A stretch of DNA of 64,000 nt from Eledone cirrhosa (lineage: Eukaryota): assembly GCA_964016885.1 (NCBI GenBank), contig OZ024743.1, positions 347,758,001 to 347,822,000 of the forward strand. Reading direction: 5' to 3'. Of this stretch, positions 4,097 to 59,499 are shown piece by piece. The stretch's first letter is position 1; the number at the start of each line of letters is the position of its first letter. The notes beneath the pieces were generated by a model. It had not been told where the DNA came from and did no database searches. It saw only the letters and a list, made by a program, of their open reading frames with translations. Position numbers and translations under genes: made by a program.

Positions 4097-4143
4097 ATTC
4101 CTGATGATTTCTAATGAATGAAACAGTTCTAGTCCTGTAGAAT
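4097..4143 (+). ncRNA. Type I hammerhead ribozyme motif, family C (element about 4020-4152 in (TA)n)
   Basis: attc-CTGATGA(4101-4107)-tttctaatgaat-GAAA(4120-4123)-cag-ttctagtc-ctg-TA-gaat; homologous to 34614-34668. Confidence 0.7.
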
Positions 4144-6483: not shown

Positions 6484-7366
6484 CACAAATACGTGACTGA
6501 TAGTAAGGAGCCAATGCTCAGAATTGTACTGAAGGAGAGGACAATAGACCAGGGAATGTCCAAGGAGCAAATAACAACAAGGAGATAGAACATCCTTCAG
6601 GAAAAATCCCTTCATAGTACCTTCTTTGAGAAAAATGAATTCAGGGATCCACAGACATGGAACTGGTTAAAAAGAGGAGACGTGAAACAGCATATTTACA
6701 AGGAGAAGGCTAGCCCACTGTGTAGGATCTGTGGAGAGAGAGAGATGACTGTGGCTCACATTGTATCCGAGTGTAAACACCTAGCCCAGACTCACTATAA
6801 GGGCTGGAGACATGATGTGATGGGCAGGGTGATCCACTGGCACCTATGCAAAGTAAACAATTTACCACATTCTGAGAAGTGGTATGAGCATAAGCCAGAG
6901 TCGGTGATAGAAAACGATCAGGTGAAGGTGCTGTGGGATTTTAGGATACAGACGGACAAGAAACTGGAACATAATAGACCTGACCTGGTAGTTTTGGACA
7001 AGGAAAAAAGATCGTGCCTGATTGTGGTGTGGCCTGCCCATTCGACACGAGAGTGCAAGACAAGGAGAGGGAGAAAATTAACCGATACCAGGACTTCAAG
7101 TGGAGGTAAAAAGGATTTGGAACTGCCATGAAGTCAAAGTGGTCCCGATTGTCATAGGCGCACTAGGTACTATCTCAAAAAGTTTCCAGGGATGGTTAAA
7201 GAAAATTGGCCCCGCTTTTTGGAACGCTTCGAAAGGCATGCCTGCTGGGAACAGCAAGGACCCTCCGATACGTCCTGATTATCCAAGGCTGCAGGCAATG
7301 GCTTGATATTCATTTCAACAAACTTTCCAGTTAACTAACATCAATGACTGAGATTCAAAGAACAAC
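6484..7366 (+). mobile_element. 5'-truncated Dong/R4-clade non-LTR retrotransposon (zinc knuckle plus restriction-like endonuclease), frameshifted
   Basis: ORFs 6682-7131 and 7100-7306: CRICGEREMTVAHIVSEC (CCHC), RHD, LWDFRIQTDKKLEHNRPDLVV, VVPIVIGALG; (AAT)n on both sides. Confidence 0.88.
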
Positions 7367-7794: not shown

Positions 7795-10700
7795 CTATAG
7801 GCGCATGGTCAGAGTAGGCCCATTCACACGAGCCATTCTCGCCACATTCACCCACCTTTTAGCAAATCTACTGGGGGGCAGCACATCTCTCTCCACCCTC
7901 ACCCTCCTTTCCAGGTGAAACTTGAAGAAGTTGATGAGGGATTGTCCGAAGAGAAAAGTGTCTGTCTTTAGTCCTTTCAACCTGGTCCACCTTATAATCT
8001 CTTTTGCAACTGCCACCAGACAGAGGAAAATGTCCTGCTCTTCCTGACCTAAGGAAGGTGGCGGCTCGATCTTCACTATGGACTCGGCCGATAACCGGAT
8101 TCGTTCCACACGCGACAGTAGCTGTTCGACATAACTCCACAAGTCAGTAATGCACGGACATTGCACAAGTGCGTGCAGAACGGTTTCGTCGTTCTGTGCG
8201 CATCTTGGGCAGGTCCGTCTGACAGCACTTCCGTGCCTGTAGAGTTTATCCCGAACCGGCAGTGCCCCCCGGTAGCACTGCCAAGCGAGGGATTTCTGGA
8301 AATTGTCCATCGTCCCCGGCTCAAAAGTCCTCCGGTACATACTGGTCAGTTCGACTTCGTCGAGGCCCAAAGCTTCTCCGAGTGCGTCATCGCACTTGCC
8401 CACCACTAATCCTCTATAGAACTCGAGAGTGGAAGTTCCACTGATCGCATTGCCCGCTTGGTAGAGGGCAGTGAGTGCCTGGCAACATTCCAGGTGCCAG
8501 TCACCCAGTCTCTGTCTCTTCTTGACCCAGGACTGCAGCTCTGTCAAAGAAATGAGCTGCGGAAAGGCCCGTCTGATAAACGGCGACCACACCTGTTCAC
8601 CATTGAGGCAGAATATCTGGAGATTCGCAGCCTCAACGCATGTCTGCGCATCATTAGCCACGGCATGCCCAGCCCTCCGCGTAGAGGGTGCTGGCAGCAG
8701 ATGGACCGCCTCACCAACGGAACTTGTCCCCTCCACAAGAATTTGAAGAGGAGCCGTTCCAACTTGATGAGGCGCGGACGGGGGCAAGGCACGACGGTTA
8801 GGCGGTAATAGATGACGGTTAGGCGGTAATAGATGACGGACGCGATGTACGCATTCGCCACCTCCGCGCGACCTTTCAGTGATAGCTTCCTCCCAGCCCA
8901 TTTTTGGGTGAGACTGGCTACTCTGCTCGTTACCTCGTCCCAATTCTTTTCCACCTCGAGGTCTGGTCCGAACCAAACCCCGAGCAACTTTACTGGTCCG
9001 TCCGTCCAGCGCCCCACGACGCTGTTGGACGGCATGGGCTTGCCTCTCCAGGTTCCGAGCTGCAAGCCCACCGACTTTTCCGGGTTAAGTTTGGCTCCTG
9101 TCAACCTTTCATATTCCTTCAATAAGGTGCCGACCACCTCGATTTCTGAGGTGTTCGACACCATCACGGTAATGTCGTCCGCATAAGCCGACACCGCCTT
9201 TCCACGTCCCGGTTCGAGCGGGATGCCCTGCAACAGCTCCAGCTTCCGTAGTAAAGGCTCGAGAGTCAATACGTACAGAAAGGAAGAGAGAGGGCACCCT
9301 TGACGGACCGATCGGGAGAACCGAAATGGTTCCGAGAGATGGCCATTAACCTTGACCACCGAGCGTGTGCCGCTGTGCATTGCAACGATCCAGCTTCTAA
9401 AGACAGGGCCGAAGCCAGCTGCTTTGAGGACAAACTCCAGATACCGATGGTCGACCCTATCGAATGCTTTCGATTGATCTAAATTGATCAGTGCCCCACC
9501 GAAGCCCGGTTTACACCCTACCCTCTCTATGATGTATCGCATGAGGTGGAGATTGTCGTGTATGGACCTGGCTGGGATTGCGCAAGTTTGCGCCTCCCCA
9601 ACCAAATCCTCGACGACAAGCGCCAATCTCTTTGCTAACACCTTGGCCAAAATCTTAAACTCTATGTTGAGCAGAGTTATGGGCCTGAAGTTGTCTAATG
9701 TATCCCTCTTGTTCTCGTCTTTCCTTATCAGCGTCACCACTCCCCTGCTCACAGAACTGGGAATACTCCCATTCTGCTGCCAGTTACAGTAGAGTGCTTC
9801 GAAGAGTTCGGAGAACAAGTCTGGCATATTTACGTAAAGCTCGTAGGGCAGGCCATCCAAACCGGGTGACTTGCGCCTCATGCAGCCGACAAGGGCGTCC
9901 TGAATTTCGGCTGAAGTAATCGGCCTTTCGCAGCGCTCAGCGTCGACCGTCGAGATGCGCGGCAAGCCGTCAAGGTAGGGACTGAAATCCGCTACTCTCT
10001 CTGACTCGCCACTCTCCCCGAACAACCGAGCAAAGTGCTGGCGAAAGGCCTCACACATCCGCTTGGAATCGCTTATCGCGTGTCCGTCTCGGTCCGCCAA
10101 AGACCGAATTGTGGTTTTATTACCACGCTGCGCCTCCGCCACGCGGGCCCATCGAACAGCTTTAGTTCCCTCGTTTCTCAGCGCACGCGCCTTAGCTCTG
10201 ACAATGCAACCTTCGTGTTTGGCATTGAAGAAATGATCTAATGTCATTCTCGCCGCTAGCACGTCAGTTGCGATGCCACTACAAATAGCCTCGTCTAACT
10301 TATCTACCAGCTTCCCCTCATTTCTATTTTTCTCTAACGCTAGTTCTTTGCTGAACTCTATCGAAGTTACTCTAATCTCTCTTTTGAGAGCCCCCCACCA
10401 TCTGTTGTTGATGATCCCCCCTGTCAACTTTTGCTTAACTAACTTATTGACTCGGTCCCTGTAAGCCTTACGTGCCGGAAATCACATGTTCAGCTTCCAG
10501 TAACCCGGTTCTAACCTACGCGTTTTATTTAGGTCGACCGTACAGATCACAAATTTGTGATCTGAATAGGCGACCGTTTTAAAAAGCGGACAGCCCACAC
10601 TATTTATATCTATTTTCCTAATGAAGATTCTGTCTATATACGATCTAGATGACCCCATTCGGTTGGTCCATGTCCATACTGGCACATTGGGGAAGTCTAG

Positions 10701-11236
10701 TCGATACCTGTCAGACAGCTGGAACTGGCTGAGTAGGTGCTTGAGGCTTTTGCACCCCCCGCTCCTATCGGCTACTCCCACACAATCCCAGCGTGCGTCT
10801 AAGATGCCATTCCAGTCCCCCGCTAACAGTAAAGGGCGAGACGTACCCAGAAAGGTCTCCAGGCGCCTAAAGAAGTCAGGTCGTCCGGCCCCTGTAGGGG
10901 CGTAGACGGCCAGCAGTCTAAAGGCACCACCTTCGCTACTGCTCACATCCAAGACCACCAAGTTACCGTCCGGGTCCCGGAAGATCGACCTTACCTCGAG
11001 ATCCAGTCCTTTCCTAAACAGCACTGCCCCCCCCCCCCCATTCCCGGCCTGCTAACAGATGCGAAGATCTGATAGTCGTCGAAAATGGGGGCTAGTGCAC
11101 GCGTGTCGGAAATTCTGGTCTCGCTTACGGCAATCACATCCATTTCCAGCGACCGGAGGTCGTTGAGCAGGCGACCCTGCTTCTAGGGTGACCCCAGGCC
11201 GCGAACATTTAAACTTCCTACTCTTAATATGGCCAT
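7795..11236 (-). pseudogene. Tx1 ORF2: AP endonuclease, reverse transcriptase and C-terminal Cys/His domain; disrupted
   Basis: Starts MAILRVGSLNVRGLGSP*KQ..SETR at 11236; AGDWN, SYIDRIF, SDH (APE); KSPGLDGL, FRPITLLN, DQSKAFDRV, VRQGCPLS, AYADD (RT); CPRC..ETVLHALVQC. One early stop and frameshifts near 11030, 10480 and 8610; in-frame 21 bp duplication near 8793-8835. Confidence 0.92.
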
Positions 11237-27585: not shown

Positions 27586-29394
27586 AAGTTTTATTTAAAT
27601 TGTTGGGTTACAACGAGTAAATATTTATAACTGATATAAAAGCACTCAACTATTTGGAGTATATTTACGATATTAAATAAATGGAAACTATATTTATAAA
27701 ACCATATTTATTTCATTATATATATTTCAGGGATATCATATGGTATGCCTTCATCAGACAAAATACAATATAAACAGTCTTATAAATAGATAGATTTGAC
27801 ATACCTTACAACTTCAACTTCCATTTAAAAAGTTGATTTGGTAGTGAAAAATGTTAGGGACAGTTATAAAAAGAAAGAAAGAAAGAAATCGAAGAAAAAG
27901 AAGAAATGCATGCAACGAAAAACAGAGAGAGATAGATATAGAGAGATAGATAGAGAGAAGAAATTCATGTAAAGAAAAAACAGAGAGAGAGAGAAAAAAA
28001 CACAGAGGGAGATAGATAGAAAGAGAGAGAGAAGAGAGAGAGAGAAAAAATAGAGAGAGATAGATATAGATAGAGAAAGAAAATAGGTAGTTGGGCACCA
28101 GTTGAATGACGTATCAATGATATATTTATTTATTTATTTAGTTCTAGTATTAAGGTAGAGAGAGATATATGTGGTTAGGAGAGAAAACAGCCGTTACATA
28201 GAGAGAAAAGAAAAATATCCAGAGATAAACGAGGCAGATTTAAAACATTATGTTTCATCAATCTAAAAATATCAATTCGTATGAATTAGGTATTATAATG
28301 TAAATATCAGTATTCATGAATGAGACACGTATCAATAATGTGTGAAAAATAATGATCATATGTCTAGTTTAAAATTCCTAGGTTTATAATCAGAACTGAG
28401 ACAAAAAAAAAACTGAGATAAAAAAACTGAGATAAAAAACTTAAAAAAAAAAAATTTAAATACATAAGTATATATGCACTTTCATGAAAAAAGAAAAAGA
28501 AAATAGAAGGTTATCCCAGATTCGATACTATAGACATCCATGTGAATTTACGTGATCAACTCTGCAAATTCCTATTTCACATGAAAACATTCTCATTGTG
28601 CTATAAAAATTCTAGTATACATATATGTGTACATACACACATATATAGAATCTACATTAATTGTAACAATACTATTCTTGTCTTTACTCTACATGATTAT
28701 CGTCCAAGCATAAATAGACAACAGATATCCATATATCAATAAAAATATTAAAAAATTAAAAAATATTAAAAATAAAACACAGTATGCCCCGCAAATTAAC
28801 CACAGAAATCAACCCTTCAAAATTAATTGACAATATATTGCCAAGTTCATTATAAGCATCAGAATCAAAAGCAAACAAAACCAAAATTATTTACCAAATC
28901 CTGTCTAGCAGAAATCATTCCAAAAGTTTAGGATACCCATTTGATCTACAGATGGTCTTATATTTATTATAGAAGTTTATCTAGTGTAAAATGTATTCGA
29001 TATATGTGGAGCATCAGCTTTTAGGGTAGTTTAATTATTCATGAAGAATGTTTAAAAAAAAGAAATCGAAAGATTTATCGGCGAGTTTCATAAATAATTA
29101 CAAATCATAAGTAAATATACTACATTTTAAATTTATATTTATATTTAAAAGTTGAGTTCAATCTATGTCTGCAGCAACTGAATAAATTTGTCCGTAAATT
29201 AACGGAATTTTTAGATTTTAGTATAAAGAATATCTCCTCCGCGCAGAGGTCACATGTCTCAGAAGATGAATTAAAAGGAATCCCTCTTGAGACTATATTC
29301 CAAGCCGTCGAATATCCAACGTTATCATGCTTAAGTTGCCAGAGTAAGCCTGATAGTGATGTTGAAGATTTTTTGCTTGGATCTGTGAAATATC

Positions 29395-34613: not shown

Positions 34614-34668
34614 GGAGCTTCCTGAAGATTTCATCTGAATGAAACAGTACTAGTCCTGTAGAAGCTCC
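34614..34668 (+). ncRNA. Type I hammerhead ribozyme motif, family C (element 34501-34676 in (TA)n)
   Basis: ggagcttc-CTGAAGA-tttcatctgaat-GAAA-cag-tactagtc-ctg-TA-gaagctcc: perfect 8 bp stem I and GUA triplet; inverted partial copy at 34578-34613. Confidence 0.82.
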
Positions 34669-38994: not shown

Positions 38995-39881
38995 AACTTT
39001 CTTTTTATTTGCCACCAGGGGGTCAAAGAGTGGGACAAGTACAATGGGGGAGTTTACATAAAAAGGCGTCCTCAATAAGGAGGAGGCAATAACAAGATAT
39101 AAAATATAACAAAAATAAATTGAATAACAACATCCTCAATAGGGAGGAAGCGCCTTGGGGGGTCGCACACAATCCCGAAAAAGTGCGCAACCCTTCTCCT
39201 CACGAGCACAGTGAGAGGGTGCACCCTTGATCTTTCATCTTTCTCACCTACAGTCTGATGTAGAGTGAAGGCCCATTCACACGGGCCATTCTGGCTACTT
39301 TCATAAAAAAGGCTGGGGTGCAGCACTTCTCTCTCCCTCCTGATCCTTCTTCCCAAATGATATCGGAAGAAACGGACCAGTTGTTGGCCAGAGAGAAAAG
39401 GTCTCTGACCTCAGTCCTTTTAGATGCGTCCACCATACAACCTCTTTCGCCATGGCTATTATGCAGAGAAACACCGCCTCTCCTTCGTTTTTGAAGAGGG
39501 GGAGGCGGCTTGATCGTTACAATATACTCGGTGGTCAACCGGATCGGTCCCACCCGTGACAGCAGTCGTTCGACATAGCCCCTCAGATCGGCAATGCCCG
39601 AGCAGTGTACCAATGCGTGTGCAACGGTTTCCTCGTCGCACCCGCATCTGGGACAGATCTTTTTAGAGGGGTCCCTACCCGGGCGCCCGTGTCTGTAGAG
39701 CCTTTCTCGAACCGGCAGAGCCCCTCGGTAGCACTGCCAGGCCAGGGACCTCTGGAAGTTATCCATAGGTCCCGGGCTGAATGTCCTACCGAACAGGTTG
39801 GCCAGTTCGTTTACCTCCATGCCTAGGGCTTCTCCGAGGGCGGCGTCGCACCTGCTAACCACCAGCCCTCTATAGAATGAC
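38995..39881 (-). mobile_element. 5'-truncated Tx1-clade LINE (second family) in (GATA)n
   Basis: ORF 39248-39976: GPMDNFQRSLAWQCYRGALPVRERL..CPRC..ETVAHALVHC, homologous to the ORF2 C-terminus at 7795-8450; GATA repeats on both sides. Confidence 0.9.
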
Positions 39882-41165
39882 GATAGATAGATAGATAGAT
39901 AGATAGAAAGATAGATAGATAGATAGAATCCAGAGATATGTCGGGAGTAATGACATTCCTGGGGATTTAAATACAATTAAACAGTTTTAGTCGCCTAGAA
40001 GTCATTTCTATAGGTATAATATTTGTAAGTATAAATAAGGTACCAGGAAAAACAGTAGAAATTAGGCAGGAAGAAGTAGACAGAAGGAGAAATTTATTGC
40101 ATGTTTAATATTTAACATACGTTTCTTTACAATTACGTAACAATCTACGTCCGCTAACCACATTATACAATATTCATTCGTATGCATTACATGTACCCAT
40201 TACCTACCTACAGACACCATATTTGACAAAGCCAACTTTCTGAATTACAGACTAACTGACTGGTTTCTTTGAAACAAATTCCATTCACAAGGCTTTAGGC
40301 AGTCTATCGTTATAGAAAAAGACACTTGCCGAATTTGTTACGTAGTAGGATTGAACCCGGATCATCAATATTGTGAAACGAACTATAGGCTTATTCCGCT
40401 CTTCTTCATCAAGCTCAAAGTGTTTATTTCTCGTACCAGTGTAGAATATGGTTAAATTTCAAACTCTAAATATTATTGCGTGATATGCTGTTATTTAAAC
40501 TTCACAATCATTAAATTACGCGCGAAGTTATCAGTATAATCACAGTCTTAAATGTCAATAGTTAAAACCACTAACACACACACATACACACGCACGTGCT
40601 CACACACACACAATGTCACACATATACAACACACATCCCGACAAACTAGTCATCGCTTTTTATATTGAGAGAAAGAGAAATAGAAATTTCCTTTAAAGAT
40701 TTCGTCGCCTTTTCTCTTATCATAATATAATGGTTTTGTAAGTTTAGTTTATGTAACAATGCTTAACAAAAGTGAAGAGTAACATTAGTTCTGTAAGGAA
40801 ATAGAGGTAAGAACAAATTATCGTGCTTGCTGCTTTAACTAGATTGAGAAGTTCAACTGAGATTGGACAAGTACTTGACACCTAACACGAACAAGACACA
40901 CACCGGAGGGCAATAAGAAGGCTTGTTATAACGGTTGATGACGTTGACTAAATAAGACAGTTATTATGATGAGCCCCTTTTTCACCAACATCCTAGTGAA
41001 GAAAAATAGAAGGGAAGTGATTGGCTGCGGAAAAATGATACAGTACTTGGCCACCCCTGAGGGAATTTCTATTCGCATCGTAACACCAGCGAACAAGGCT
41101 CGTATTAGCCATTCCGATAACAGGAACTGACAATGAGAAACATATCAATTTATAGATGAGAAAAC

Positions 41166-51725: not shown

Positions 51726-53282
51726 CCTATCTATCTATCTCTCTATATCTCTATCTAACTATCTCCCCCCCTCTCTCTCTCTCTCCCTATATATATATAT
51801 ATACATATATAATCGTATTTATCTCCCTTTATAGTCTGCCTTTTATTCTTCCGTGATTGTTGTTGTAGAGCCACTTACCAACTTTCATATAGCTGGCCAC
51901 TAATCAAATGAATTCCAGACTTGGCCACACCAACCACTTGCATATATAGGACTACATTGTTCAATACGACCATTACTTTCAGAGAAATTTGTATCGTTAT
52001 ATCTAATATGATGACGGCATTCCATCTATAAACGTTTCGATGTTGTACATCGGAGACTGTATAGCACAGTGTGTCTATTCATTTAAAAGACATTGGTGTC
52101 TGGTTCGAGAGAGATTTGGATAATATTTCTAGCAGATTATTTTATCATGTAAAGTCTCTTGAAGGCTCTTCCGAGGTAGATATTGTATGTACCTGTCAAT
52201 AATTGGTATCGATTTATCGTTTAAATTACCCTCCACACATTTTTAATGGTGTAAAAAAATCTATAGTGATTATTCATAATGATTCTTCTGTAAAAGATTC
52301 AAGTTTCATTACAAGTATTTGTACTTTATTGGCAAGAAAGTTTGACAACACAGCTTTCGATCTAACAATGCTTTGTTTATTAGAATATGCTAGAATCAAG
52401 CCAGTCTTTTAAATACTATCCTGGGAATACAATACACATATTCTAAATGTCTATCGAATGCGTCTAGATTTCTCTGTGACATGTTATGAGAGTAATGTTG
52501 CCAGTAGTAGATTGGGAGAAATTGTGCATGTAAAACTAACTAACTAAATAAATAAATAAAATTAAACATAATATATATATATATGTTTAATGTTTTTTTA
52601 AAGGAAAGCGCATTAACTACTGATTAGGCTGTTGTGGATTCAATTCCCTGACAGAGTGGAGCGTTATTTCCTTGATAAAGTGACTTTATTTCACGTTGCT
52701 CCAGTTCACTGTGGTAAAGGTAAGTACCAGGATCAGCAGCAGTATTAAGGATTTAAGGAAAGGCTGTGTCTTTGCACATATAAATTCGCATATATCAGAA
52801 AATATTGAAGAAGTATCGGACCCCGTCATTAAAATTTTACCCCGAGCTGATTGCTATCGAAACAATTGTAATATGCCAATAACAGTTGTACATGTACTAC
52901 AAAACTGACTTCGATTCTACTTAATCTATAATACACACACATACACAGACACACACATATATATATTCATATAAGTATAAGAACATTTATCGTTAGACAA
53001 TATTTAAAAAAACTAAATGCTGTCATATATAGCGATGAGTAAAAAAGCCCCAGAGAACAGAGATCAGTGACCAGTGGTGAACAGAGAAACTATCCACGAA
53101 GTGGGTGACAGGCAGTATACGCAGTATACGCACGTATACGCAATGATACATGTACTCATGCATATATGTATGTACATATTGATATGCATATATATATATA
53201 TACATAAATGGAAATATATATATATATATAAAGGGTAAAAATGAAATTACATTTCTCACTCTTAGTACGGCTGATATTTAAA

Positions 53283-53754
53283 TATAAGTATGTATACGTA
53301 CATACATATATGTATAAAGACGTAAAGTAGTATGTATATATACATACATACATGCCCACACATATATATATGTACGTGTAGGTTTACCGAAAGTTAATTT
53401 TTTCCATTTATCGTTTTCGGTACACCCGGCTGACTAACTCACTCAGCCGTGAATATGCATAAAGAAAGTATATACTTTCAAACGTTCAATCGACTGACAG
53501 TAAGGTATACGGTGCTGATGACAGCTAATAAGCTAGAAACTAGTTCATCGTTCCTTTGTCAGTGTTGAACAAAAGGGCAACGATGGTTGCCGAAAACTGT
53601 ACGGCTAAAAATTCGGACTGTTTGTTTACAAACAAACTGAGCATTATAATAAATGTTCGGTAAAACAACACGTACATATATATGTGTGTGCATGTATGTA
53701 TGTATATACATACTACTGTACGTCTGTATACATATATGTATGTACGTATACATA

Positions 53755-53760
<6 letters not shown>
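53283..53760 (+). mobile_element. Unclassified ~480 bp element with ~110 bp terminal inverted repeats and a central hammerhead
   Basis: 53283-53395 is an imperfect reverse complement of 53652-53760. Confidence 0.7.
53484..53570 (+). ncRNA. Minimal type I hammerhead ribozyme with palindromic helix III and extended helix I
   Basis: cggtg-CTGATGA(53515-53521)-c-agct-aata-agct-a-GAAA(53536-53539)-CTAG-TT-catcg; helix I continues aagg/cctt, actgaca/tgtcagt, gttcaat/gttgaac. Confidence 0.8.
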
Positions 53761-53831
<71 letters not shown>

Positions 53832-54982
53832 ATAATAATAAATTAGAAGACTAAAATCCAAAGAGGGCTCAATAAGGATAAATATATATTAAATATATGA
53901 CAACTGTAGAGGTAATATTTATTAAAATAACAGATTAAAGTTTAAGCCAAGAATCGTTGCTTTCACTCTTAACGGGATCTTCTGAAACTAACAGAAGTGA
54001 ATATTTAAAAAAACGTTGCAACCGGAGGAAGACAGGAAGACGATACTTTGGTTCGTGGAAACGTTCCCTTGCAAAGAACGGGAAAAAACGAATATCATAC
54101 GTCATTAATTGGAGCGGTGAAAAACAGTTACACGCAAAAACAGAACCACCTTTATGGTATGAAAGAAGTCGTAGATTGATATTCTCTTAGGTGGTTCATA
54201 GAGACGTTCTCTGGCAATGAACGGAGAAAACGAAGATAAAACGTCATATGTGGATTATGGAGAACAATTGCACGCAAAGACCATGCAGATACCATGTAAA
54301 TGGTATAACTGAAGTCGTAGACTAAATTTCTAACTAGGAAACCGAATGATTATCCGCTTCAGAGTTAAGAATAAAGTAAATAAAATACAGAGGTAATAGA
54401 AATTAAATAAATACATAGACGCATCCAAAACCGTACATACACAAGCATACGCAAAACACTCGCCATAGCTATACAAATACACGCACATATAAATATGTGT
54501 GTGTGTGTGTGTGTGCGTGTATACAAATAATTAAATAAACGTAAATAAATAAATAAATACGTATATAACTAACGCACACACATACCTATATGTAAATACA
54601 CAAATGTTCGGAGACGTACGTCAAACAAAACACGAAGTACACATATACACACACCCTACATACGTACGAACCCGCATACTCACACATACGCAAAACTCCT
54701 GTATACACATAACCAAAAGCATATCTACCAGATTATATAAAATATACGCCATAACATATACAATCAAATATACGTACGAGAAAGTATACGCACCTTCACA
54801 AAACATACAGGTAATATATACTTACCTATGCAAATAAGTAATGGTATAAACATAACATATACTTAGCTACCACATCAAGACGTAAATTGTCCGCGTATAG
54901 ATCGTACTATCCGTTAGAGTATAATGTGGGGCTGTATTAGAGGAAAGTTTTGTGCAATTTATGTTTACAAGCCGAAATTACC

Positions 54983-55834
54983 TCAGATTTTTTGTTTAAG
55001 ATGTGGTCTGTGGCGTAGAATTATTTCCAGGGCCTCAGCGGCGCAGAGGTCACATGGTCTTTTATTTCCGTTATACGATCTAGCCCTAGCTAGGATCTCC
55101 CTGTGTAACTTATATTGGGTGTGGTTGTCTTTTAGACTCCAGATATAAGCTGAAAGTGACGTCATATTCCTTCTTAGAGGGTAACGAAATGAATGGGCAT
55201 GCATGTAAAGACGCTGCTTGAATCTATTGGCGGTTAACCCTATGAAGGCCCTACGGGACGTGGGTGTTTCAACCTTACATTTGTAGACAATGTTACTAGA
55301 GAGGCATTTCCCGGATAGGGGGCAATCAACCCTATTCCTACAATTACAGTTAGTACTAACTACAGGGTTGCACGTGTTCCTACGGCTAGGTAGTTTAGCT
55401 AAATTTGTAGCTGTGATGTTATGTGCAAGGTTAGGAGTCGTAGAGTAAGAAATTTTAATAGTATTTCTATTAAAAATGTTACTATATTTATGTGTAGGGG
55501 GAAAATGCTTCGTAATAAGGGATAGAAAGATCTTAGCTAATGGTGTGGCCACCTCCATATTATATGGTGGGTTATACCATATAATGTATCGGGATCTATT
55601 TCTTCTAGGTCTATTCTCGTAATCTGTATATGCTACCTTATCGACGAATCCACTCCGAGCAAGAGCTTCATTGTAATATGTGGAATGGTCGTTGAAAATA
55701 TGCTCGTTAGTAGATTTTCGGGAAAGCCTCAACGAAACGTTTCTTACCAGGTTCTTGGTTATGCTGGCAGGATGGTTGGAATGCTTACTTATGTATTTAA
55801 GCGTATCATTCGGCTTTCTATACGGGTAATACAA
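54983..55834 (-). pseudogene. PLE RT thumb, Cys-rich linker and GIY-YIG endonuclease (5'-truncated, frameshifted near the C-terminus)
   Basis: YRKPNDTLKYISKHSNHP, IIWYNPPY, IKISYS, CNCRNRVDCPLSGKCL, NIVYKC..FIGLT..FKQRLYMH, CDLCAAE. Confidence 0.9.
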
Positions 55835-55889
55835 GCCATTCGATAAATTGAGTGTAGCGTCGAGGTAATTAACATAATGCTGTAACTAA

Positions 55890-57610
55890 GGATTACCGTA
55901 ATACTAATCGGTGCGTCATCAATGAAATCAACGATGCTGGGTTTAAAATCACCTCTGATCTCAACATCCTGGACCGGACCGAACCTCTGGACTCTTTTTC
56001 TCCCCCACTTTATCCTGAATGATCACAAATCCAATTTTCCGAACAACCCCTCTATTCGGCTTATTAACCCTACGAAGTCTGATTTAGATAGACTTAGTAA
56101 AAGGATTCTTGATAGAATCATACCTGAAATTAGAAGTTTGGCCCCTCTTGCAATGTGGAACAATTCTTTCGCGGTGATTGATTGGTTCAACGGCATATGC
56201 AACACGGAACATTGCCATTTTATCCCATTCGACATCAATAATTAGTACTCCTCCATCACTTTACCACTTCTTCTTAGAGCTATCAATTTCGCTAAAACAC
56301 TCACAGTGGTTAAGGATGTCGAAGTTGATGTCATCCTCAATGCCCGTAAGTCGGTGATTAATTTCGACGACTCTATTTGGATTAAACAATCCAATAATAC
56401 CCCTTTCGACGTAATACCCCATTCGCCAGCGATTCTGCGGAGGTTACTGATCTTATCGGCCTTTTCCTTCTCTTCTCTATCAAGGACGAATTCCCCAAGG
56501 CGGGCGGTGGTTTGTACCGTGATGAACGTCGTTTGACCATGATTAAGTGCGGCCCTCGTGCTTGCGACAGGTTCAGAAAATAAATCACAGCCTTCTTTAA
56601 AGACTTCAACCTCTCTATACAGGTTGAGGCCAACCTCTCGGTCGTTAATTACCTCGACGTTACCCTCAATTTATTGAATGGCTTGTATTACCCGTATAGA
56701 AAGCCGAATAATACGCTTAATTACATAAGGAAGCATTCCAACCATCTTGCCAGCATAACCAAAAACCTGGTAAGAAACTATTAGTTGAGGCTTTCCCGCG
56801 TCTATCTACTAACGAGCATATTTTAAACGACCATTCCACATATTACAATGAAGCTCTTGCTCGGAGTGGATTTGTCGAAAAGGTAGCCTATACAGAGTAC
56901 GAGAATAGACCTAGAAGAAATATATCACGACGCATTATATGGTATAACACACCATATAATATGGAGGTGGCCACACCATTAGCTAAGATCTTTCTATCTC
57001 TTATTACGAAGCATTTTCCCCCTACACATAATAATAGTAAAATTTTTTATAGAAATAACATCAAACATTTCTTACTCTACGACTCCTAACCTTGCACATA
57101 ACATCACAGCTTCAAATTTAGCTAAACTACCTAGCCGTAGGAACACGTGCAACCCTGTAGTTAGTACTAACTGTAATTGTAGGAATCGGGTTGATTGCTC
57201 CCAATCCGGGAAATGCCTCTCTAGTAACATTGTCTACAAATATAAGGTTGAGACACCCACGTCCCGTAGGGCCTACATAGGGTTAACCGTCAATAGATTC
57301 AAGCAGCGTCTTTACATGCATACCATTCTTTTCGTTACCCTCTCAGAAGGAATATGACGTCAATTTCAGCTTATATCTGGAGTCTAAAAGACAACCACAC
57401 CCAATATAAGTTACACTGGGAGATCCTAGCTAGGGCTAGATCGTATAACGGAAATAAAAGACCATGTGACCTCTGCGCAGCTGAGGCCCTGGAAATACTC
57501 TACGCCACAGACCACATATTAAACAAAAATCTGAGGTAATTTCGGCTTGTAAACATAAATTGCACAAAACTTTCCTCTATTACAGCCCCACATTATACCC
57601 TAACGGATAG
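55890..57610 (+). pseudogene. PLE reverse transcriptase plus GIY-YIG ORF, 5'-truncated, with stops and frameshifts
   Basis: DHKSNFPNNPSIRLINPTKSD, FIPFDINN*YSSI, FDV..DSAEVTDLIG, GLYRDE, VNYLDVTLNL, then the same endonuclease region as 54983-55834. Confidence 0.88.
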
Positions 57611-58517
57611 TACGATCTATACGCGGATAATTTACGTCTTGATGTGGTAGCTAAGTATATGTTATGTTTATACCATTACTTATTTGCATAGGTAAGTATA
57701 TATTACCTGTATGTTTTGTGAAAATACGTATACTTGTGAAGATACGTATATTTGATTGTATATGTTATGGCGTATATTTTATATATTCTGGTAGATATGC
57801 TTTTAGTTATGTGTATACGTGAGTTTTGCGCCTGTGTGAGTATACGGGTTCGTAAGTATGTAGGGTGTGTGTATATGTGTACTTCGTGTTTTGGTTGACG
57901 TACGTGTCCGAACATTTGTGTATTTACATGTAGGTATGTGTGTGCGTTCGTTATATACGTATTTATTTATTTATATACGTTTATTTAATTATTTGTATAC
58001 ACGCACACACACACATATTTATATGTGCGTGTATTTGTATACCTATGGCGAGTGTTTTGCGTATGCTTGTGTATGTACGGTTTTGGATGCGTGTATGTAT
58101 TTATTTAATTTCTATTACCTCTGTATTTTATTTACTTTATTCTTAACTCTGAAGCGGAGAATCATTCGGTTTCCTAGTTAGAATTTTAGTCTACGACTTC
58201 AGTTATACCATTTATGTGGTTTGGGCTTTGCGTGCAATTGTTCTCTACGCTCACATATGACGTATTATCTTCGTTTTCTCCGTTCATTGCCAGAGAACGT
58301 CTCTATGAACCACCTAAGAGAATATCAGTCTACGACTTCCTTTATAGCATAAACGTGGTCCTGTCTTTGCGTGTAATTGTTTTTCACGGCTCCAACTAAT
58401 GACGTATTATATTCGTTTTTTCCCGTTCTTTACCAGGGAACGTTTCCACGAACCAAAGTTCGTATTCCTGTCTTCCTCCGGTTGCAACGTTTTTTGCAAT
58501 ATTCACTTCTGCGTTTA

Positions 58518-58591
58518 CAGATTGACTTTGTTAGTTTCAGAAGATCCCGTTAATGTTGAAAGCACCGATTCTTTGCTTAAACTTTAATCTG
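58518..58591 (+). ncRNA. Hammerhead-like motif with variant core CAGAAGA in the PLE terminus
   Basis: cagattga..agttt-CAGAAGA-tcccgttaa(gggt in the 27351 copy)-GAAA-gca..tgc-TT-aaact..taatctg; mirrored at about 53930-53990. Confidence 0.55.
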
Positions 58592-58621
58592 TTATCTTAA
58601 TAAATATATATATATATATAT

Positions 58622-59101
58622 AAATGAAAGCAAAAGGGATATTCAATAATGTGTTGGTAATTCAACAAATATAAATGTTTATAATTGATTCAGAACACTC
58701 AACAAGTTTTCTGGAGTATAATATTCAATGATATTATCCATAATTATTATAATAATTATTATAAATAAATGGAAACTATATTTATAAAACCATTTTTATT
58801 CTATTATATATATATATCAAGTGTACCAAAACTTTGGTACGCGCTCTCATCAGATAAAATTCAAAGTTTGTTTTATAAATATTGACATAACCAAGAAAAA
58901 ATACCTTAACGGTTCAAGTCTTCCCTGACTATCCAGGAAAAACTTGAACCGTTAAGGTATTTTTTCTTGGTTATGTCAATATTTATAAAACAAACTTTGT
59001 ATTTTATCTGATGAGAGCGTGTACCAAAGTTTTGGTACCCTTGAAATATATATAATATAATAAATATTGTTTTATAAATATAGTTTCCATTTATGTAATA
59101 T

Positions 59102-59137: not shown

Positions 59138-59499
59138 TTATACTTGGGGCGGGTCATATTGTTGAAATAATATTGCCAGAATTAATAACAGAACGCACTA
59201 AATGTTTAGTCCTTAATGTTTATAATTGACTGACCAACGGTCAACAATACAGATATAATATAGATATAAACACATATATATAGTCCAACAAAGTTCTTTC
59301 GTTGCACATCTGCAACATCATCAGTGGTACTATTATGTTCCTACTGTTGTATTATATGTCTACGTCAATTTTATTTTATCTGTTTATTTATTTGTACACT
59401 TATCAAAAAAATGTATATATTCGTCGGTTAGAAGAAGTAGTAACGTACGAGTGGATTTCGGTTATAAATAAATTATAAATAAATAAATACATATATAAA

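Follow-up and report, generated by a model that had tools for sequence, protein, structure and literature searches.

A 64,000-nucleotide (nt) stretch of the Eledone cirrhosa genome (contig OZ024743.1, C4 in our set of contigs, from the 3.0-Gb assembly GCA_964016885.1; forward-strand positions 347,758,001 to 347,822,000; hereinafter the window) raises the question of how a small segment at about 53283–53760 came to hold a hammerhead ribozyme motif between long inverted arms, and what kind of mobile element it represents. A sequence-only reading had described it as an element shaped like a miniature inverted-repeat transposable element (MITE), of an undescribed kind, bounded by terminal inverted repeats (TIRs) and possibly mobilised by the type of Penelope-like element (PLE) found next to it. 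Comparison with the other copies in the genome leads us to consider it most probably a non-autonomous repeat resembling the retrozymes that lack long terminal repeats (non-LTR retrozymes), likely mobilised by PLEs and with a predicted hammerhead activity.

A dispersed non-coding repeat

The unique core between the arms (53385–53665), used as a genome query, returned 3630 first-look candidates, and the 40 of these that were scored gave 50 matches with 74–100% identity, most of them in the range of 87–93%. Searches for the 31-nt hammerhead core recovered 831 exact copies (416 forward and 415 reverse; none for the reversed control), and those for a 41-nt junction sequence recovered 1961 matches at up to two mismatches (again none for the control). 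The repeat is thus dispersed, occupying about a thousand genomic sites or more. The family is young, 47 full copies of the unique part having a mean pairwise identity of 93.2%.

Two copies joined head to tail in locus L003 give a tandem junction with a period of 427 nt, and in L014 the period is 473 nt owing to a longer internal (TA)n. We adopted L014:1483–1996 as a ruler for the unit (u1–u514), on which u1–41 corresponds to GTACTAAGAGTG...TTTCCATTTAT, the hammerhead core begins at u166, the predicted cut falls at u196|u197, a TA/CA low-complexity tail occupies u326–463, a short linker u464–473, and u474–514 repeats u1–41. The unit is non-coding, with 36.6% GC and, over a complete period of 427–473 nt, no frame longer than the 75 aa found in the dimer. 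Since the tail of one unit runs directly into u1 of the next, there is no space for a coding part, and the repeat is therefore not the pseudo-LTR (pLTR) of a coding PLE, which was part of what would have told against the sequence-only reading. Its description as a non-autonomous mobile element carrying a ribozyme motif is borne out.

Cervera and de la Pena (2020, PMC7229834) define animal non-LTR retrozymes as low-GC tandem units of 150–450 bp that have a type I hammerhead and are expressed as RNA in both linear and circular form. The window repeat is like these published elements in its short, non-coding, AT-rich unit (427–473 nt, 37% GC), in having one type I hammerhead motif per unit, in its head-to-tail copies and in the proposed link to PLEs. 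It differs from them in that its arrays are short, mostly of 1.1–2 units, and spread over hundreds of loci, where the published elements form long tandem arrays, and in that its unit lies at or slightly above the published range; moreover, expression as linear and circular RNA is documented for the published retrozymes and putative for the repeat. With non-LTR retrozymes, and both tandem and inverted insertions of PLEs, already in print (PMC7229834, PMC8557442, PMC4209133), the element does not belong to an undescribed kind. Contigs of the runs X1, X4 and X5 are DNA-like and hold many variant copies of the repeat. In run X5, from a second organism, one 151-nt contig lies over the hammerhead region (L003:1596–1744) with seven differences; the repeat family or a relative may be present in a related species.

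Origin of the inverted arms

The arms at 53274–53373 and 53670–53769 are 100 nt long, 83% complementary and spaced 296 nt apart. They have the TA/CA pattern and the ends (cgtgt..tttaccgaa and ttcggtaaa..acacg) that had been reported for them, and between them lies a unique core containing CUGAUGA...GAAA-CUAG-UU, with a helix I of 23 bp. The reverse complement of 53228–53386 aligns to the tail of L003 together with an extension, ending in ...CCCTTTAT against (TA)n. Accordingly, 53228–53764 consists of two head-to-head copies of one repeat, namely a 5'-truncated inverted copy of 161 nt and a copy of 376 nt; the arms are complementary because both are the 3' tail of one repeat unit.

The layout of the locus is then as follows. 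A TA-rich microsatellite flank (53146–53227), the likely target, precedes the inverted copy on the minus strand (53228–53388; the last 161 nt, about u306–514). The outer part of this copy is a terminal extension (53228–53284, the reverse complement of u464–514), which reaches the (TA)n with ...CCCTTTAT and is present at this end of the pair only; the remainder (53285–53388, about u306–463) is the low-complexity 3' tail that had been taken for the left TIR. The truncated 5' end of the inverted copy directly abuts position 53389, the 5' end of the longer, plus-strand copy (53389–53764, u19–u463). The latter ends in ...CATACTTA without the extension, and its TA/CA low-complexity tail (53666–53764, u326–463) is the supposed right TIR. 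A (TA)33 microsatellite (53765–53829), common to the 3' end of the neighbouring PLE, comes next, so that the pair has (TA)n on both sides.

The plus-strand copy is about 88–89% identical to other copies and carries a private 21-nt deletion, which mark it as older than typical copies of the family. The small hairpins that had been reported to flank the hammerhead are all present: three are conserved in the family, and the fourth (cggctga..tcagccg) is a product of the private deletion. In the left TA flank, an isolated reverse-complement copy of TTTCCATTTAT (53204–53214) lies 14 nt outside the end of the inverted copy; it may be the remnant of an extremely truncated other insertion, or a small duplication.

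Insertion architecture across loci

We took a census of neighbouring copies within 1.2 kb in 59 loci (L001–L060 minus the duplicate L030), based on 153 matches of the unique segment. This yielded 30 head-to-head (-+) pairs against 5 tail-to-tail (+-) pairs, along with 59 direct pairs (28 ++ and 31 --), i.e., the partial tandems in which most copies are arranged. A count over the first 100 exact hammerhead matches in the list for contig C1 gave the same picture for the inverted pairs, with nine (-,+) and no (+,-) pairs within 1.1 kb, besides a single direct pair. The inverted arrangement is accordingly not unique to the window locus, in line with the sequence-only reading. In 19 of the 30 head-to-head pairs the two 5' ends are separated by a gap of at most 46 nt, and the position of these inner ends varies from locus to locus between u1 and about u306.

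These data bear directly on the possibility of a true MITE, i.e., a non-autonomous DNA transposon whose TIRs of ~110 bp would be bound by a transposase. The repeat does resemble MITEs in being small, non-coding and high-copy, and at the window locus it presents 100-nt inverted arms around a unique core. The left arm, however, simply corresponds, in reverse complement, to the 3' tail of the unit itself together with the extension; it is absent in 18 of 29 loci, and its inner boundary shifts over the range given above, so that the copies do not consistently keep both TIRs and the same ends. The outer ends are unequal, the extension being one-ended, no conserved TIR termini are found across the copies, direct tandems are frequent, and the 5' truncation is a signature of retroelements. 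Target-site duplications, which in a MITE would have a fixed length, are unreadable in the (TA)n flanks. We consider a true MITE extremely unlikely, and the so-called TIRs are in our judgement probably a by-product of integration rather than transposase recognition sites.

Both outer ends could be classified in 18 of 26 head-to-head composites (eight being unclassifiable), and in 17 of these 18 the u464–514 extension is found at exactly one outer end (11 left and 6 right), with one composite having it at neither end and none at both. The composites from L002–L029, which had not been selected via the 41-mer, agree in showing a one-ended extension in all nine classifiable cases. Thirty exact 41-mers were followed: 18 continue into a next unit as partial tandems, and 12 end the element, TA-rich sequence following every one of these 12 free 3' ends. 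Preferred 5' ends lie at u1–2 (e.g., L004, L019, L032, L038 and L049) and around u257–261; ends at u1 and at u514 suggest a linear RNA with a 41-nt terminal repeat, for which a copy longer than one unit would be the source of transcription. In 13 of 17 pairs the arms resemble each other slightly more than they resemble the remaining copies (Wilcoxon p = 0.02), and private variants are common to both arms in L010, L032 and L038. Together, the orientation bias, the one-ended extension, the (TA)n ends and the likeness of the arms speak for each pair having arisen in a single integration, not by chance nesting.

The opposing view would be that the two arms are independent insertions of an abundant family into one TA hotspot, the inversion being a matter of chance. 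It draws on the fact that (TA)n tracts gather several elements, with the repeat and both PLE families of the window (PLE-A and PLE-B; see below) all ending there, on the modest complementarity of the arms (just 83%), and on the observation that in all but one of 17 pairs the arms are no more alike than an arm and its best unrelated copy. The 30 to 5 and 9 to 0 excess of head-to-head over tail-to-tail pairs, the closely abutting 5' ends, the extension at exactly one outer end and the private variants on both arms in three loci speak against it, and we regard independent insertion as improbable.

A different retroelement origin also deserves mention, namely a short interspersed nuclear element (SINE) mobilised by a long interspersed nuclear element (LINE), with the inversion arising by L1-style twin priming. 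The window does contain a LINE with apurinic-endonuclease (APE), reverse transcriptase (RT) and zf-RVT regions at 7795–11051 on the minus strand (Exo_endo_phos, RVT_1 and zf-RVT domains in three adjoining frames), and a second zf-RVT fragment lies at 39248–39976 on the same strand. Twin priming is a known source of inversions. Nevertheless, the repeat has no poly(A) or LINE-like tail, its 3' ends lying in (TA)n; the two arms duplicate one 3' tail instead of representing complementary parts of one RNA; and the core is unmatched by tRNA, 5S and 7SL. The one-sided extension and partial tandems are, moreover, features described for PLEs (PMC8557442), and this origin is very unlikely.

The comparison with PLEs is closer. 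Their insertions are described as frequently 5'-truncated, with partial tandems that make up pLTRs, inverted repeats arising from a 5'-truncated copy that lies inverted at the 5' end, an extension of 30–40 bp that is often present at one end only, and (TA)n as a preferred target (Craig et al. 2021, PMC8557442). Each of these is seen in the repeat: 5' truncation with pLTR-like partial tandems, an inverted 5'-truncated copy abutting the 5' end, a one-ended extension and a bias to (TA)n targets. The inverted twin and the one-sided extension are not among the features given in the retrozyme descriptions that we compared. The repeat differs from the published PLE insertions in having no open reading frame and in the length of its extension, which is 51–57 nt and comprises the first 41 nt of the unit plus the linker; also, the published (TA)n bias concerns the Naiads, which are described as lacking canonical hammerheads.

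The hammerhead motif

The motif is located where the sequence-only reading had placed it, and its elements can be read directly on the plus strand. The 5' strand of helix I (53484–53514) is followed by the core C3–A9, CUGAUGA (53515–53521), helix II (53522–53535) with C.A at 10.1/11.1, an AGCU/AGCU stem and an AAUA loop, a segment with G12-A13-A14, A15.1, the palindromic CUAG loop, U16.1 and U17 (53536–53545; GAAA at 53536–53539, CUAG at 53540–53543 and UU at 53544–53545), and finally the 3' strand of helix I (53546–53570). Cleavage is predicted after 53545. The pattern CTGATGA-N4-30-GAAAC occurs twice in the window against an expectation of 0.17. The minimum-energy fold of 53480–53575 (96 nt) has -29.1 kcal/mol (z = -3.6, with 0 of 200 shuffles as stable) and contains helix I as an interrupted stem of 23 bp, the length that had been proposed. 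All positions expected of a type I core are in place, i.e., C3 U4 G5 A6 (N7) G8 A9, G12 A13 A14, A15.1-U16.1 and an H17 other than G.

To assess conservation, we aligned 99 distinct 87-nt domains from 116 BLAST hits (duplicates and one short hit being dropped), along with the window copy; the alignment has three subfamilies, the older of which were reached via one divergent copy. The core columns are at least 90% conserved across the 99 copies. The hammerhead structure leaves 91.2% of cells paired, as against 28–46% when the 3' partners are slid by 1–3 columns, and the ACUAGU palindrome is kept, with 96% of its cells paired. Two-sided changes were found in 17 cells compared with 7.8 +/- 2.2 in shuffles (0 of 500 as high), a test that related sequences can inflate. 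One helix I pair (col30–67) has three states, G.U in 66 copies, A-U in 18 and U.G in 8, and two other helix I pairs vary one-sidedly yet stay paired (U.G becomes C-G in 29 copies, and A-U becomes G.U in 33). A further pair of the first model (col19–75) is broken in 28 copies, a break that the alternative register GGAA:UUCC would avoid. The subfamilies differ within the ribozyme domain at N7 (U/C), H17 (U/A), the compensated pair and 10.1/11.1 (C.A versus U.U), and none of these diagnostic differences hits any of the 11 invariant core bases in the three subfamilies. This retention is suggestive only as a sign of selection on the hammerhead.

The minimal type I hammerheads in the pLTRs of PLEs offer the nearest published parallel. 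They are described as having palindromic 15.x-16.x/loop 3 or helix III segments and acting as dimers, dual hammerheads lie 100–700 bp apart on opposite strands, and circular RNA has been suggested to serve as template when copies exceeding one unit are made (Cervera and de la Pena 2014, PMC4209133). The window motif agrees with this published type in its type I topology, conserved core and palindromic 15.x-16.x/loop 3, in the opposite-strand motif pairs 100–700 bp apart, and in the high copy number and little variation of a recently active family. With non-LTR retrozymes it shares a weak helix III of one base pair whose loop is palindromic, an arrangement suggestive of dimeric action, and a mismatch at the base of helix II like that of the axolotl HHR_Amex2 (PMC7229834). 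The published PLE hammerheads differ from it in having a helix II of 6–8 bp, a helix I of 2–5 bp and a conserved G10.1-C11.1 pair (PMC4209133), where the repeat combines a helix II of 4 bp with a helix I of 23 bp and is mismatched at 10.1/11.1.

Several results weigh against an active ribozyme. The G10.1-C11.1 pair, described as highly conserved (PMC4209133), is replaced by C.A in the window copy and the young subfamily and by U.U in the older subfamilies, a standard pair at this place (pair 40–53) being present in 8 of 99 copies. The Rfam hammerhead models left the motif unmatched at their gathering scores in the window; at E <= 10, a search of 53200–53800 gave 58 weak matches, all microRNA-like and on the low-complexity arms, with no hammerhead among them; and in the more typical copy L003 no Rfam hammerhead was matched at E <= 1. 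For the 87-nt domain, the hammerhead fold has -19.7 kcal/mol versus -27.6 kcal/mol for the minimum-energy fold, which is thus 7.9 kcal/mol more stable and sequesters the core within two other hairpins. The covariation is thin, amounting to essentially one compensated pair with few independent events behind the counts; and, as we calculate it, the probability that six changes all fall outside 11 given positions out of 44 by chance is about 18%. Of these results, the mismatch, the silence of Rfam and the core-burying fold weaken the description of a 'well-formed minimal hammerhead'. In the conservation profile of the young subfamily the hammerhead region does not stand out from the sequence around it, which is what copies in decay should show.

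We also looked for a trace of cleavage in the 5' ends of genomic copies. Searching for (TA)4 within 30 nt upstream of the helix I anchor gave 674 matches, many of them phase-shifted duplicates, and the first 100 rows, classified by hand, reduced to 38 distinct TA-flanked truncated loci on C1. Their starts are spread over u172–209 (u172–180, 8; u183–185, 2; u192–194, 5; u195–198, 5; u199–202, 5; u204–209, 13) with no sharp peak at u197, where 5' ends should accumulate if cleaved RNA were a common template; the test thus lends no support to cleavage. An early impression from four copies that the 5' ends mark the cleavage site was not upheld by these 38 loci.

It is necessary to consider that the repeat is a PLE-type non-autonomous retroelement whose hammerhead-like motif is catalytically dead, being a relic or a structural hairpin without a role in the life cycle. 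The helix II mismatch, the unmatched Rfam models, the more stable competing fold and the absence of a 5'-end peak would all fit this view, as would the low or undetectable in vitro activity reported for PLE minimal hammerheads (PMC4209133). Conversely, the three subfamilies, for all their differences at N7, at H17 and in one compensated pair of helix I, have every one of the 11 invariant bases, the ACUAGU palindrome is retained, and an axolotl retrozyme hammerhead with U.U at the base of helix II is reported to cleave, and to do so better as a dimer (PMC7229834). We regard a dead motif as possible though distinctly less likely than a retrozyme-like repeat with a predicted active hammerhead. 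The 429-nt monomer running from cleavage site to cleavage site folds with -134.6 kcal/mol (z = -6.3; none of 100 shuffles is as stable), both its ends being paired by helix I, and such a fold, joining the monomer ends, would favour ligation.

Penelope-like elements in the window and the partner question

Immediately beyond the (TA)33 tract lies PLE-A (53830–58607), which consists of two 5'-truncated members of a coding PLE family joined head to head, with the minus-strand copy extending from 53830 to about 56650 and the plus-strand copy from 56644 to 58607. Its inverted arms are 91–97% complementary between 53915 and 58607, and an extension of about 95 nt beyond ...TTAATAAAT is present on the minus-strand copy only, the plus-strand copy being without it. 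The family is very abundant, with 78,848 first-look candidates and intact 713-aa frames elsewhere in the genome, and the copy in L074 has a 574-bp pLTR at 98% identity. Pfam returned no family for the 713-aa frame at E <= 1; by eye, the frame has a YRDD motif, a zinc-finger-like CNC...C and a GIY-YIG-like C-terminus, and the Atlas clusters that look like the protein, to be taken as leads only, carry GIY-YIG, RVT_1 and HTH_animal. We call the family a PLE because of the YRDD motif and the GIY-YIG-like C-terminus, the Atlas look-alikes as leads, and the combination of a pLTR with the inverted structure.

PLE-A was considered as the mobilising partner and set aside, its similarity to the repeat being limited to low complexity. 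Neither the CTGANGA..GAAA motif nor a hammerhead core is present in the full-length PLE-A locus L074. Downstream of the PLE-A copy in that locus, a 203-bp repeat contains two weak minus-strand matches to the Rfam model Hammerhead_HH9 (L074:6241–6297 and 6560–6616; 19.5 bits, E 0.69, against a gathering score of 52).

A second family, PLE-B, is represented by a head-to-head pair of 3' ends (58765–59094) and has 2920 first-look candidates in the genome. In two loci (L137:3102–6568 being among the sites) its homology continues upstream for 3.5 kb or more, with 92.5% identity, and its broken frames match residues 13–705 of the PLE-A protein with 35–51% identity (E 2e-107). Each PLE-B 3' end has a minimal hammerhead motif (the plus-strand copy at 59008–59046) with a long helix II and a helix III supplied by TATATA, about 85 nt from the 3' end, and also TTTCCATTTAT, about 17–20 nt from the 3' end; the same 11 nt end the repeat. 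This motif fits the published PLE hammerhead type (PMC4209133) better than that of the repeat does. There are six sites of TTTCCATTTAT in the window against 0.08 expected, of which two are in the repeat, two in the PLE-B palindrome, one in a PLE-B 3' end near 27677 and one unrelated. The case for a PLE partner is weakened by the fact that these 11 nt are all that the repeat and PLE-B share, no extended similarity existing to either PLE compared. PLE-B-like elements may nonetheless be better candidates than PLE-A, which we offer as a lead only. Thus, the suggested mobilisation by the adjacent PLE type can be retained as far as the tie to PLE biology goes, but not for the adjacent PLE (53830–58607) itself. 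Both PLE-A and PLE-B in the window have the head-to-head architecture of the repeat pair.

Other hammerhead-like sequences were noted as well. Another 5'-truncated PLE-B 3' end at 27660–27790, on the minus strand, has CTGATGAAGGCATACC...CCCTGAAA and, 38 nt later, TTTCCATTTAT. At 59297–59324, also on the minus strand, is a classic PLE-type hammerhead-like motif, CTGATGA-T-GTTGCA-GATG-TGCAAC-GAAAGAAC, in which A9 is followed by an unpaired base and the G10.1-C11.1 pair is present; motifs related to it are found near position 371 of L073 and position 878 of L137, from which it follows that there are several hammerhead-bearing families in the genome. The pattern CTGANGA-N4-34-GAAA occurs 12 times in the whole window versus 2.9 expected (0 of 100 shuffles reach 12), and similar short motifs are present at two places, 4101–4123 and 34622–34644.

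A proposed course of insertion

On the reading that we favour, the pair in the window would have been laid down in one retrotransposition event by a PLE reverse transcriptase/endonuclease at a (TA)n microsatellite. Transcripts longer than one unit would run from u1 through to a point 41 nt inside the unit that follows. The two hammerheads of such a transcript could pair via the palindrome ACUAGU and then cleave, the cut being predicted after U53545 and probably made as a dimer; the resulting 429-nt monomer, its ends held by helix I, may be ligated to a circle or used directly. The PLE enzyme, whose source would be a hammerhead-bearing PLE family sharing TTTCCATTTAT, would nick the (TA)n and prime on AU-rich microhomology at ...CCAUUUAU, and a second priming or a template switch would generate the inverted, 5'-truncated twin.

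More tentatively, the family might record the integration of a retrozyme by the PLE pathway, with the inverted twin, the one-sided 51-nt extension and priming at TTTCCATTTAT as its marks, along with a mismatch at 10.1/11.1 that has been kept through the change from U.U to C.A and perhaps gates cleavage to dimeric, longer-than-unit transcripts. We hold this fuller proposal to be possible but doubtful.

Implications

The repeat family is new, and the retrozyme-like, likely PLE-mobilised kind to which it is assigned has been described before; the ribozyme activity and the identity of the mobilising PLE are predictions. For the annotation of PLE-rich animal genomes, a small non-coding core with inverted arms should be checked for twin copies before it is called a MITE. 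The published link between retrozymes and PLEs is described as one of co-occurrence and pLTR phylogeny (Li, Clavereau and Pollet 2026, bioRxiv 10.64898/2026.07.22.740005), whereas here the insertion scars themselves, i.e., an orientation bias of 30:5, an extension that is one-sided in 17 of 18 composites, and targets consisting of (TA)n, bear a PLE signature that can be tested directly. As a young family with 831 identical cores, the repeat would provide convenient material for cleavage and circularisation assays, and its natural series of variants at 10.1/11.1 (U.U, C.A and a few U-A) would be useful for work on ribozymes.

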